Below are positions 49,063 through 51,186 of a stretch of 64,000 bases of DNA, piece by piece. The notes under the pieces are model-generated. The model had not been told where the DNA came from. It searched no databases and was given only the letters and a program-made list of their open reading frames with translations. The number at the start of each line of letters is the position of its first letter. The first letter of the stretch is position 1. The DNA is from Escherichia coli (GTDB lineage Bacteria; Pseudomonadota; Gammaproteobacteria; Enterobacterales; Enterobacteriaceae), in assembly GCF_045037415.1 (NCBI RefSeq), contig NZ_CP173438.1, one strand, 5' to 3'. The position numbers and the translations under genes were made by a program.

Positions 49063-49080
49063 TCAGTTTAAGCAGAAGAG

Positions 49081-49112
49081 GCCGGGCTGGTGAAAACACC
49101 GCCCGGCTTTTG
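49081..49112 (+). terminator. intrinsic terminator of luxS (also 3' boundary of HD-Pnk gene)
   Basis: gccgggc-tggtgaaaacacc-gcccggc followed by ttttg. Confidence 0.65.
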
Positions 49113-50225
49113 TTACCTGTCAGTCATCCGATATTCCACGCTATGTGCTTCATCAGGTTGAGGAACTTCCAGCCTTGAGGCCATCCGCATCACGACCGCT
49201 TCAGGAACTGCATACTCGCGTCTGGCATTTTGCTGGTTCCATTGCGCCCATGGCACTTCCAGATAAACGATTTTTACTCGTGCGCCGTAAGCCGTAAACA
49301 GACTGATGAGCTGGCTGCGCAGCTGGCGGGTAATGTTCGTTGCATTCCAGATGAACGGCTTTTTCTGGCGTAAAAAAACGCGCGCCTCTTCTTTTGCCTG
49401 TTGCACAATACGCCCGGTGGCGGTTTTGTCGTCCGGACTGGCATTGATTCGCCGCCGCATATCATCAAGGCTGATAACGTCCATTCCCTGGCACTGTTCA
49501 CTGATATAGCGATCTTTGCCCATACCCGGTAAGCCACACAGCAAAATAACCTCAAAAGGTTCAGCCTCCCAGGGAACAAAATCAGGAGAACTTTGCTCAT
49601 GAGTCAGGTAGTGCCAGCGTGCGGAATCAGAAACGAACGGGCGCATTTTTCCCCAGCATTGTTGCTCATGGCAAAACAGCTCGAACAGATCGATGCGTTC
49701 CAGCATTGATTGCTGATCCGGGCTTTGGCGACCAAGCAGATCGGCACGAGCAAGCAAAGCGAGCAGACGCGTGTCGATGCGCATTGCAGCCGTGAGCAAC
49801 AAACGCTCCGGTTCCGGACGTTCCAGTAACCATAGCGGTAACCCATGCAGACGCACCAGTGCAACAATTTGCTCGCGCAGCACGAACGGCGTTGGGATAT
49901 CGCGCCATAAAATTTGTCGAGCCGTCAGTTCGCCCCGACGAGCATGACCAGGAGACTGAATACGTCCGTTTTCCTGCACGGTAGTGCTGCGCTTTTCAAC
50001 ATCATGCAATAACGCCGCCGCCCATAAAACTTCCTGCTGTTGAGCGGGGAGTTGCTGGAATTCTGGCAGAGTAATGAGGGCGTTAAGCACCATTTCGGTA
50101 TGTACGCCGACGTCGCCTTCACCATGATGCTCAGGGTCTTGTGGCGTGTGATGCATCTCCTCAACCCAGCTAAAACGCTGACGTAGCGCCGACCAGCGTT
50201 TATCGTCGGTAAGTTGCCAAATCAT
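49113..50225 (-). CDS. HD-Pnk-like bifunctional end-healing enzyme: N-terminal HD phosphoesterase plus C-terminal P-loop polynucleotide kinase-like domain
   Basis: 370 aa; HD signature residues ([27 protein letters not shown]) in N-terminal half; P-loop-like GLPGMGKD and downstream WNATN (reminiscent of the DNTN motif of Pnk-type kinases) in C-terminal half; ATGA start/stop overlap with upstream ligase gene. Confidence 0.75.
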
Positions 50226-50929
50226 GACTGTTCTCCATAAACGAACTCATGGGCCATCCGCGCCCGTTGCCAGTGGCGTTTCCAGTGCACAGTGGTTTTG
50301 ACATGATTTTTGCGCACATACTTGAAGACGTTATGCGAAAAGTCAGCGACAGAAAACGCATCATGATTTCGGCTGACAATGCCTTCCAGCGTACAGGGTT
50401 GACAGGTTTGCGTATCCCAGGGATCGAATGTGCCGCGCGCATTGGTCAGCGCCAGAAAATCACGTTGCCAGCTTTTTTCATCATTCCCCGGCTGCGGGCC
50501 GGAGATTTCGGGAACGCAGGGGAAATCAAACAGAGCGGCGTAAAACTGCACCTCTTCCCAGCTCAGCCACATATCCTGGCAGCGAACGGCAAACAGGTAA
50601 AAGTCCTGTTCCAGCGCGCGGTATTCAATGGAATGAACGGCGTAGAGATTTTCACCAAACAACTCCAGGTTGCCGAGATCGTTTTTCAGCAGTTGCCAGC
50701 GTTGGCGAATTTTATAGGTCCATGCCGACTGCGTAGGCGTGGCATGGGAGCGGGCAAACACGCCGTAGCGGTTAAGGCAGTTATTTTCGCCATCGAGTTT
50801 TTCTGTGTGCACCAATTGCGTGATGGTCTGTAAATCCTGCCAGTAATCGGTGTTAATGCGGTCATCGCTGGTGGTGCCTGGAGAGAAGGGGTAATGCCAG
50901 GTTCTCCCGTATTTACGTTGGGTATTCAT
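50222..50929 (-). CDS. ATP-dependent RNA-ligase-family nucleotidyltransferase (minimal ligase)
   Basis: 235 aa; covalent nucleotidyltransferase motifs in order: I KLDG (about residues 44-47), III LFGEN, IV EGIV, V KYVRK. Confidence 0.75.
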
Positions 50930-51149
50930 AATAATCCATTATTTTGTGTGTAATAAATGTACGCCCGCGAGGGTGCGAGTTTTGGGGTTAAAAGAAAAAT
51001 GTGAGTATCACCCGCGAAAGCGAGGGCGAAGGAAAAAGAGAATTAACAACCTGAGCGAATGCTCAGAACCGGCTAATGGTGAATGGAAGAGTTTGGGGCG
51101 GCGAAAAGATACACCGAATGAGTGTATAAAACAACCGTTTGCAGAATGA

Positions 51150-51178
51150 GCAAATAAAAAGGGAGCCGCAGCTCCCTT
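51150..51178 (-). terminator. intrinsic terminator of emrB
   Basis: On minus strand gggagc-tgcg-gctccc followed by tttttatttg, 10 bp after the emrB stop. Confidence 0.65.
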
Positions 51179-51186
51179 TGGCAACC

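Follow-up and report, generated by a model that had tools for sequence, protein, structure and literature searches.

A LIG/HD-Pnk gene pair between luxS and emrB in Escherichia coli, probably the longer of two alleles at an old locus

The DNA considered here (the window) is a stretch of 64,000 nt from Escherichia coli contig NZ_CP173438.1 (assembly GCF_045037415.1). In it, the stop codons of luxS (49060–49062) and emrB (51187–51189) are separated by 2.1 kb with just two open reading frames (ORFs), both on the minus strand. Their RefSeq names are simply “RNA ligase family protein” and “ATP-binding protein”; they are called LIG and HD-Pnk below, and together with their intergenic sequences they form the cassette. 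The LIG stop and HD-Pnk start codons share an ATGA at 50222–50225. Taken together, the evidence makes it likely that the locus is old and has two alleles, that this is the long one, a self-contained end-repair operon that is ancestral at this site, and that the alternative allele is a young loss. The parts of the locus are as follows.

48547–49062, plus strand: luxS, core flank, convergent with the cassette (ORF call; luxS label in the matching RefSeq records)
49077–49115, both strands: predicted bidirectional terminator hairpin, which would serve luxS (plus) and HD-Pnk (minus); specific to the cassette haplotype
49113–50225, minus strand: HD-Pnk, 370 aa (ORF; TAA stop at 49113–49115)
50222–50929, minus strand: LIG, 235 aa (ORF)
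50927–50943, minus strand: conserved translation-initiation region AATAATGGATTATTATG, near-invariant in 14 of 15 same-site loci
51037–51114, minus strand: conserved leader core, with −10 box, CCGCCCC, anti-Shine-Dalgarno (anti-SD)-like TCCATT, hairpin and U-rich tail
51106–51134, minus strand: candidate sigma-70 promoter of the LIG/HD-Pnk operon (conserved alignment columns)
51149–51182, minus strand: predicted emrB intrinsic terminator (terminator scan and fold; same hairpin across genera)
51187–52734, minus strand: emrB, core flank upstream of the cassette and co-oriented with it (ORF and RefSeq annotation)

Both proteins can be identified directly from domain matches, catalytic motifs and predicted folds. 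HD-Pnk matches Pfam AAA_33 (1e-31) and, under the 22-bit cut-off, HD (0.009, 16.8 bits). Its NCBIfam matches are the bacterial Pnkp kinase region, CCA-repair HD and HDIG, and its sequence matches in the PDB are the C. thermocellum Pnkp kinase and T4 Pnk. HD-domain residues H34, H42, H74-D75, H94 and D162 are invariant among 40 homologues, as are kinase residues G234-x-G-K237-D238, D254, R257, R303 and R336 (40 sequences). With Foldseek, the kinase domain of the AlphaFold2 model (pLDDT 91.4) aligns with the CthPnkp kinase and T4 Pnk at TM 0.74 and rmsd about 2.5 Å, and the N-terminal half of the model aligns with 3wfp, an HD-containing tRNA-processing enzyme. HD-Pnk is thus predicted to be an N-terminal HD phosphoesterase joined to a C-terminal P-loop 5'-OH polynucleotide kinase. 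Its P-loop (residues 234–238) reads G-x-G-K-D, with Asp rather than the usual Ser/Thr after the Lys, and this Asp is found in at least 95% of 84 HD-Pnk family members from two phyla.

LIG matches Pfam RNA_ligase (1e-27, 97.6 bits) and carries nucleotidyltransferase motifs I (KxDG), III, IV and V in a ligase fold: K44-L-D-G (motif I), E93 (ENLYA), E182-G-x-V-x-R187 and K203-x-V-R-x-x-H-V-K211 are invariant in 41 sequences. No NCBIfam ligase family was matched, and neither single-sequence nor profile searches of the PDB found a sequence relative, only spurious matches to hemocyanin, WD-repeat and capsid proteins. The nearest folds to its AlphaFold2 model (pLDDT 82.7) are Naegleria Rnl5, T4 Rnl2, archaeal Rnl3 and the Trl1 ligase domain, at 14–20% identity and TM about 0.5 (E about 2e-6 for Rnl5, Rnl2 and Rnl3); DNA ligases rank below RNA ligases. 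Fold and motifs I, III, IV and V are common to LIG and Rnl2/Rnl3/Rnl5 (T4 Rnl2, Pyrococcus/Palaeococcus Rnl3, Naegleria/Deinococcus Rnl5). Unlike these, LIG has a short, highly conserved N-terminal segment of 20 residues, and in the model its 235 residues form the nucleotidyltransferase domain alone. Rnl1–3 have a C-terminal module, Rnl5 has an N-terminal OB domain and Rnl4 is part of Pnkp; LIG has none of these. Membership of Rnl1–Rnl5 was considered and rejected, a family-specific appended domain not having been found: LIG is like them in action and in none of them. It is predicted to be a minimal ATP-dependent RNA-ligase-type nucleotidyltransferase.

The pair is widespread and its order is fixed. 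LIG is followed by HD-Pnk in all 85 fetched loci (Enterobacterales, Bacteroidota and one Neisseriaceae assembly; cited below by L number), and the ORFs overlap in 65 of them. Bacteroidota homologues are 60–66% identical to E. coli LIG, which is unusually high conservation, and 52–59% identical to E. coli HD-Pnk, with the catalytic residues of both proteins invariant across 40–84 homologues from two phyla. The pair is not new in kind: it appears by sequence to be a member of the described HD-Pnk/LIG end-healing and end-sealing family. The Runella slithyformis HD-Pnk and LIG cluster was reportedly the subject of Munir & Shuman 2017 (J Bacteriol 199:e00739-16), in whose title HD-Pnk is said to be called a DNA/RNA end-healing enzyme. 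There a ligase ORF lies directly upstream of, and overlaps, the gene for a bifunctional 2',3'-phosphoesterase/5'-OH kinase, HD-Pnk (PMC6097658). As published, the Runella cluster has the same ligase-first, overlapping gene order and the same domain order (HD N-terminal, P-loop kinase C-terminal) as in E. coli; the homologues compared directly here are relatives from other Cytophagales and Chitinophagales rather than the Runella sequences themselves. The two loci differ in that Runella has Tpt1 and methyltransferase-HIT neighbours, both absent from E. coli, and in that the E. coli locus has an Enterobacteriaceae-specific candidate promoter and leader. A literature search found no paper connecting luxS, emrB and an RNA ligase. 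The family gives a named, testable function, healing and sealing by HD-Pnk and LIG, to two E. coli genes that K-12 does not have.

Alignment with other genomes, suggested in the preliminary description as the way to define presence, absence and junctions, gives two E. coli alleles with junctions at two stop codons. Among 5,426 complete E. coli genomes, 998–999 (~18%) have the cassette, always as one chromosomal copy and never on a plasmid, and 4,422 (81%) have a 63-bp spacer instead; about five have neither. The K-12-type spacer (L001:817–879) contains a single bidirectional hairpin, GCCAGTTC-AAAT-GAACTGGC, which differs from both hairpins of the window. Sequence common to the alleles is limited to TCAGT past the luxS stop and about 1–4 nt before the emrB stop. 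The cassette had been described as an insertion exactly between two terminators. Two hairpins and two ORFs are indeed there, but the alleles share no spacer and both window hairpins lie in the variable segment, absent from the K-12 allele; the difference is therefore a stop-codon-to-stop-codon replacement rather than an insertion between pre-existing terminators.

The two alleles also differ in diversity. With K-12 queries, the spacer is found with no mismatch in 4,412 of its 4,422 genomes (99.8%) and with at least one mismatch in just 10. For the last 63 nt of luxS coding sequence, 2,451 genomes have no mismatch and 2,416 (50%) at least one; for the last 63 nt of emrB, the numbers are 3,885 and 1,495 (28%). 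Among cassette carriers, 622 are at 99% identity or above over the whole cassette, 359 are at 95–99% and 18 at 90–95%; over the leader the numbers are 610, 377 and 11. E. coli W differs from the window cassette at 75 of 2,118 positions (3.5%). Flanks do not follow this division: those of W (cassette) are distinguished from those of a K-12-like strain (empty) by 1 of 516 and 1 of 800 positions, and those of the window (cassette) from those of strain E23 (empty) by 1 of 516 and 6 of 800. Allele state is uncoupled from flank haplotype, each allele occurring on both haplotypes. Given a near-invariant spacer between polymorphic flanks and uncoupled haplotypes, the simplest reading is that the short allele is young, and it appears to be a loss of single origin spread by homologous recombination.

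Another possibility is that the short allele is ancestral or equally old, its invariance reflecting strong selection on the bidirectional terminator or on an overlapping 3'-UTR-derived RNA, within a long-lived balanced polymorphism. Its hairpin is shared with Salmonella enterica subsp. salamae (26 of 28 nt), suggesting age; both alleles occur on both flank haplotypes; and the cassette, deeply diverse, has been kept at 18%. Selection on the hairpin and its tracts, however, would concern only ~28 nt, and 99.8% of copies are invariant over the full 63 nt next to polymorphic coding DNA. Rfam shows no known RNA in the spacer, its only match being MicA, upstream of luxS. An old short allele is accordingly judged improbable, and a young loss remains the favoured account of the spacer.

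Individual strains show later changes at the locus. In strain E23 (L002:846–1554), an IS200C copy interrupts the spacer at the hairpin foot (between its positions 28 and 29). About 90 genomes have the spacer split into two places, which makes it a recurrent or clonally common IS200 target. These copies were considered as possible insertion sequence (IS) remnants of a cassette boundary and rejected, being secondary insertions into the short allele. Among cassette carriers, E. coli O145 RM12275-C1 has an HD-Pnk pseudogene with an internal stop (L003:865–1977), and strain Ecol_542 has lost emrB, emrA and emrR in a deletion with one end within LIG and the other in an MFS gene by proX (L004:4110–5218).

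Outside E. coli, the pair is found in the same place. It lies directly past emrB, with luxS-gshA beyond, in a cryptic-clade genome (Escherichia sp. MOD1-EC7003), S. enterica subsp. salamae (complete in L095), Klebsiella spallanzanii, Enterobacter sp. BIGb0383, Superficieibacter and one enterobacterial metagenome lineage. In Phytobacter and Kosakonia it is also past emrB, with extra cargo beyond the pair, so that the cassette is at the emrB-luxS site in at least seven Enterobacteriaceae genera. In Serratia, Xenorhabdus, Providencia, Proteus and the Bacteroidota, the pair is in other contexts. Divergence was measured over conserved residues, as the share of them with identical codons in E. coli and its relatives. 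Against other genera it is 55–66% for LIG and 47–51% for HD-Pnk, with 56–64% for emrB, luxS and gshA; the cryptic Escherichia clade gives 90.5% for LIG and 87.5% for HD-Pnk, with 87.7, 95.9 and 87.9% for emrB, luxS and gshA, respectively.

The junction is at the same time a variable spot without mobility genes, with lineage-specific cargo. S. enterica has a gene for a RafY-like glycoporin here (L093:3517–5280), and Klebsiella pneumoniae (L090:3517–6127) and Enterobacter (L091) have an AraC regulator and an isopropylmalate-synthase-like (IPMS-like) enzyme. Phytobacter has a large FKBP-domain protein (L013/L016/L017:6832–9245), Superficieibacter electus has an MFS_2 transporter (L019:6969–8360), and the Leclercia junction (L096) is also among the loci of this variable spot.

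The preliminary description saw no integrase, transposase, IS or boundary repeats, and none were found here: the ORF list and Pfam give no integrase, transposase or recombinase gene in the interval, and a repeat search found neither direct nor inverted repeats joining its two boundaries. It had also proposed comparing GC content and codon use with the flanking core genes. The two cassette ORFs have GC contents of 0.533 and 0.521, GC3 of 0.532 and 0.604, and codon-adaptation-like indices (trained on the window) of 0.62 and 0.72, all within about one standard deviation of the window's 38 other genes. A foreign composition was ruled out by these values. With no mobility genes, boundary repeats, target duplication or odd composition found, the interval does not look like a mobile element or genomic island.

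The same site, flank-like divergence, native composition and lack of mobility signatures favour long co-residence of the cassette with its flanks, and so probably ancestral presence with later loss in E. coli. The preliminary description had offered this reading side by side with an old, domesticated acquisition; of the two, ancestral presence has held up better. Acquisition would mean that illegitimate recombination, at a junction prone to it, put the cassette into a luxS-emrB spacer that was empty in E. coli, and that amelioration followed, with the K-12-type arrangement ancestral. The junction is a recurrent variable spot whose cargo differs by lineage, most E. coli (81%) have the short allele, and the representative E. 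albertii and E. fergusonii genomes are not among the close homologue matches, which is an argument from absence. The pair is also at unrelated sites in Serratia, Xenorhabdus, Providencia and the Bacteroidota and must therefore have moved during evolution. The alleles, however, have no common spacer sequence and no target duplication, with the K-12 hairpin not found in the long allele. The same site in at least seven genera, divergence like that of the flanks and native composition also argue against it, as does the long allele itself, which is far more diverse than the short one and retains the ancestral emrB terminator that the short allele has lost. Acquisition of this kind is considered improbable.

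Both terminators of the preliminary description are real hairpins. The luxS-side one (49077–49111, plus strand, followed by TTTTGTT) has a predicted dG of −27.2 kcal/mol (z −4.0). On the minus strand it folds at −24.4 kcal/mol, starting 1–4 nt past the HD-Pnk TAA. It has a one-base bulge, because of which a simple terminator scanner missed it. The emrB-side hairpin, rightly assigned to emrB, is at 51158–51179 on the minus strand with its tail TTTTTATTT at 51149–51157; it was called by the terminator scan and folds at about −17 kcal/mol. It is made up of AAAGGGAGC-TGCG-GCTCCCTTT and then TTTTTATTT, giving a 9-bp stem and a U5AU3 tail (UUUUUAUUU in RNA). Both have a GC-rich stem-loop and a U tract and are predicted intrinsic terminators, and both are kept across genera with compensatory changes.

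Their distributions differ. A hairpin with compensatory changes is at the luxS-side position in Escherichia, K. spallanzanii, Enterobacter sp. and Superficieibacter. This hairpin varies with the cargo: the GCCGGGCnG type occurs only with the cassette, 1–4 nt past the HD-Pnk stop, and was not found in alleles with other cargo or in the K-12 allele. By comparison it would be a shared convergent terminator belonging to the cassette haplotype. A GGGAnC-N4-GnTCCC-T(n) hairpin, on the other hand, is directly 3' of emrB whatever the cargo beyond. Of the cassette loci, all but that of S. salamae have it (Escherichia, K. spallanzanii, Phytobacter, Kosakonia, Enterobacter sp. and Superficieibacter), and so do S. 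enterica with the porin gene (stem GGGATC/GATCCC) and K. pneumoniae with the AraC and IPMS-like genes (stem GGGACC/GGTCCC). With GGGAGC/GCTCCC these make three compensatory stem variants. The emrB-side hairpin is on this evidence the ancestral emrB terminator of the Enterobacteriaceae, lost from the K-12 allele. In S. enterica subsp. salamae, REP-like palindromes, GCCGGATG...CATCCGGC, are found on both sides of the cassette (L095:3517–3643 and 5690–5780; L005:5690–5780) in place of the hairpins of the other genera.

The preliminary description reasoned that the ligase gene must have its own promoter. When 15 same-site loci are aligned, the invariant or nearly invariant columns past the emrB terminator give the pattern TTG(nnn)-17 nt-TAT(nn)T. 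In the window this is a −35 of TTGTTT (51129–51134), a 17-nt spacer and a −10 of TATCTT (51106–51111), with a predicted start near 51099; the aligned Superficieibacter sequence is TTGCAA-17-TATTAT. Sigma-32, sigma-E, sigma-54 and sigma-28 readings of the conserved leader blocks were tried by eye and rejected as poor consensus matches. A promoter for LIG and HD-Pnk in the ~250-bp leader is supported by this comparison and unproven, and the claim stands in that form. The alternative is that the pair lacks a promoter and owes its expression wholly to transcripts reading through the emrB terminator, which would make it a distal part of the emrRAB operon, with the leader blocks serving, e.g., as a regulator site. 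The E. coli hexamers are weak and uncalled by the scanner, and in all Enterobacteriaceae loci the pair points the same way as emrB, both of which count for read-through. A canonical terminator (9-bp stem, U5AU3) nevertheless precedes the leader and is kept with compensatory changes; the invariant columns are exactly at the informative promoter positions, with 17-nt spacing, and the Superficieibacter sequence is a good promoter; and the pair also occurs at unrelated loci without emrB. Read-through as the sole source of expression is judged unlikely, and a promoter belonging to the operon is preferred.

The leader downstream of the candidate promoter has several conserved parts. One is TCCATT (51082–51087), complementary to the conserved SD-like AATGGA (50935–50940). 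Another is a CTGAGC/GCTCAG hairpin (51050–51067), followed by a U-rich tail, in which two to three pairs are changed on both sides; a CCGCCCC block is also conserved. RNAalifold and the single-sequence minimum free energy fold (z −2.3) both draw a TCCATT:AATGGA helix, and RNAalifold also draws the hairpin. The helix is backed by conservation rather than covariation, and Enterobacter sp. BIGb0383 breaks it. A leader covariance model (R1), searched against 78 sources, matched only the window and S. salamae, with none outside the Enterobacteriaceae. Matches to simple leader motifs in Xenorhabdus and Enterobacillus were rejected as unsupported. The leader motif (50927–51140, minus strand) is thus limited to the emrB-luxS site in the Enterobacteriaceae and matches no Rfam family; it is a candidate regulatory leader only.

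Taken as a whole, the operon would run from the emrB terminator through a weak sigma-70 promoter and a conserved leader of ~190 nt to LIG, HD-Pnk and the terminator used bidirectionally with convergent luxS, with LIG and HD-Pnk translationally coupled through their ATGA. Its substrates would be RNA (or DNA) ends with 2',3'-cyclic-phosphate or 3'-phosphate and 5'-OH, as left by ribotoxins. The HD domain of HD-Pnk would strip the 2',3' phosphate (2',3'-cyclic or 3'-phosphates), its P-loop domain would phosphorylate the 5'-OH, and LIG, adenylylated at K44, would seal the healed ends. Phage T4 Pnkp with Rnl1/Rnl2 and bacterial Pnkp-Hen1 follow the same logic, combining a 5'-OH kinase, a remover of 2',3' phosphates and a KxDG ATP-dependent ligase. 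They differ in the phosphoesterase, which is of HD type here, a DxD acylphosphatase in T4 and a calcineurin-type metallophosphoesterase in bacterial Pnkp. The ligase is also a separate 235-aa protein with no appended domain here, and there is no Hen1 methyltransferase.

Gene neighbours give some hints as to the substrate. In five Serratia species and Bacteroides cellulosilyticus, genes for RtcB, a PrfH-like RF-1-domain protein (~205 aa), LIG and HD-Pnk are co-oriented in that order (L021:3218–6813, also L022, L023, L024 and L028, in Serratia; L089:2758–6795 in B. cellulosilyticus). RtcB alone is upstream of the pair in four more Bacteroidota loci (L050, L065, L073, L083), and RtcB and PrfH-like genes are the only neighbours recurring across phyla. 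RtcB2-PrfH rescues and repairs colicin-E3-cut ribosomes (PMC9304027, PMC9223846). The LIG/HD-Pnk pair is not among the RtcB-PrfH accessory genes listed in the passage of PMC6514570 consulted, nor is a joint cluster mentioned in the accessible portions of the PrfH papers and review. RtcB-RtcA and RtcB2-PrfH operons, accessory and sporadic like the pair, are repair modules for ribotoxin damage, as the pair may be. RtcB joins 3'-P or 2',3'-cyclic-P to 5'-OH directly with GTP, whereas LIG and HD-Pnk would go by way of 3'-OH and 5'-P, and no RtcB or PrfH gene adjoins the pair in the window interval. Because of the neighbours in Serratia and Bacteroides, translation RNAs damaged by ribotoxins are proposed as the substrate, a hint that amounts to guilt by association. 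It does point to such ribosomes or tRNAs as first candidates, and with about one in five sequenced E. coli carrying the pair, strains such as W should be tractable hosts for a ligase substrate search.

The module could instead work on DNA ends, or be an anti-phage or counter-defence device, rather than repair host translation RNA. T4 uses Pnkp and Rnl1 in phage-host conflict, which counts for this possibility, and so does the reported description of Runella HD-Pnk as an enzyme healing both DNA and RNA ends. The LIG fold is nevertheless nearest to RNA ligases, with DNA ligases lower; PADLOC gives no match; the only neighbours recurrent across phyla are the RtcB and PrfH-like genes; and the chromosomal site is between core genes, outside any defence island. 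A DNA-directed or anti-phage role therefore seems doubtful, and RNA repair is retained as the working interpretation.

More ambitious is the joint proposal that LIG/HD-Pnk is the classical-chemistry counterpart or partner of RtcB-PrfH, repairing ribotoxin-cut 16S rRNA or tRNA anticodon loops, that in the Enterobacteriaceae a damage-responsive leader silences it, and that the polymorphism reflects fluctuating colicin selection. In detail, silencing would be translational and come from pairing of the anti-SD TCCATT with the SD and from the attenuator-like hairpin, opening upon RNA damage or ribosome stalling, and selection by colicin-type toxins would be opposed by the recombination-driven spread of the young loss allele. 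As a single claim with all of these parts, this is speculative and on balance unlikely.

For the history of the locus, the likely course is that the operon has been at the emrB-luxS junction since an early member of the Enterobacteriaceae, co-diverging with its flanks with no delivery by a mobile element. The 63-bp K-12-type allele would then be derived, a replacement of single origin that removed the operon and both terminators and spread through E. coli by homologous recombination in the conserved flanks. We infer this age and direction of change from the allele comparisons, and several observations weigh against the overall account or parts of it. Synonymous sites are near saturation between genera, and equal divergence cannot exclude old transfers; E. 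coli LIG is 82% identical in amino acids to the Salmonella protein and 84% to that of Klebsiella, and so not clearly closer to Salmonella. S. salamae, which bears the cassette, has the K-12-type hairpin as its emrB terminator (L095:5784–5803; 26 of 28 nt, E 4e-5), and a single deletion in the long allele as it now stands in E. coli therefore cannot have given the short one. At least one exchange between lineages, or an unsampled intermediate, is needed, and none of the fetched loci contains a source for the remaining 35 nt of the K-12 spacer. The spacer's invariance could also be due to strong selection on its whole length. Within Escherichia, the cassette proteins are 95–96% identical in amino acids, compared with 99% for the flanks; with this faster evolution and decay in some strains, their function is dispensable. 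The E. coli candidate promoter matches 7 of 12 consensus positions, with no call from the promoter scanner. The Runella ligase self-adenylylates and sealed none of the tested 3'-OH/5'-PO4 substrates (PMC6097658), and sealing and substrate are therefore unproven. The PADLOC defence-system models match neither cassette protein. If the favoured history is right, the locus shows cleanly how an accessory operon can look inserted and nonetheless be ancestral, with a near-clonal loss allele that recombination has apparently spread across phylogroups.

Two further features of the window lie outside the interval. An Rfam scan found no known RNA family inside it; the sole match was MicA (48407–48478, minus strand, 83.9 bits), between gshA and luxS as expected for this core region. 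A 216-aa ORF at 44707–45357 (minus strand) has a GC3 of 0.48 and a codon index of 0.43, clearly below its neighbours, and may be spurious or foreign.

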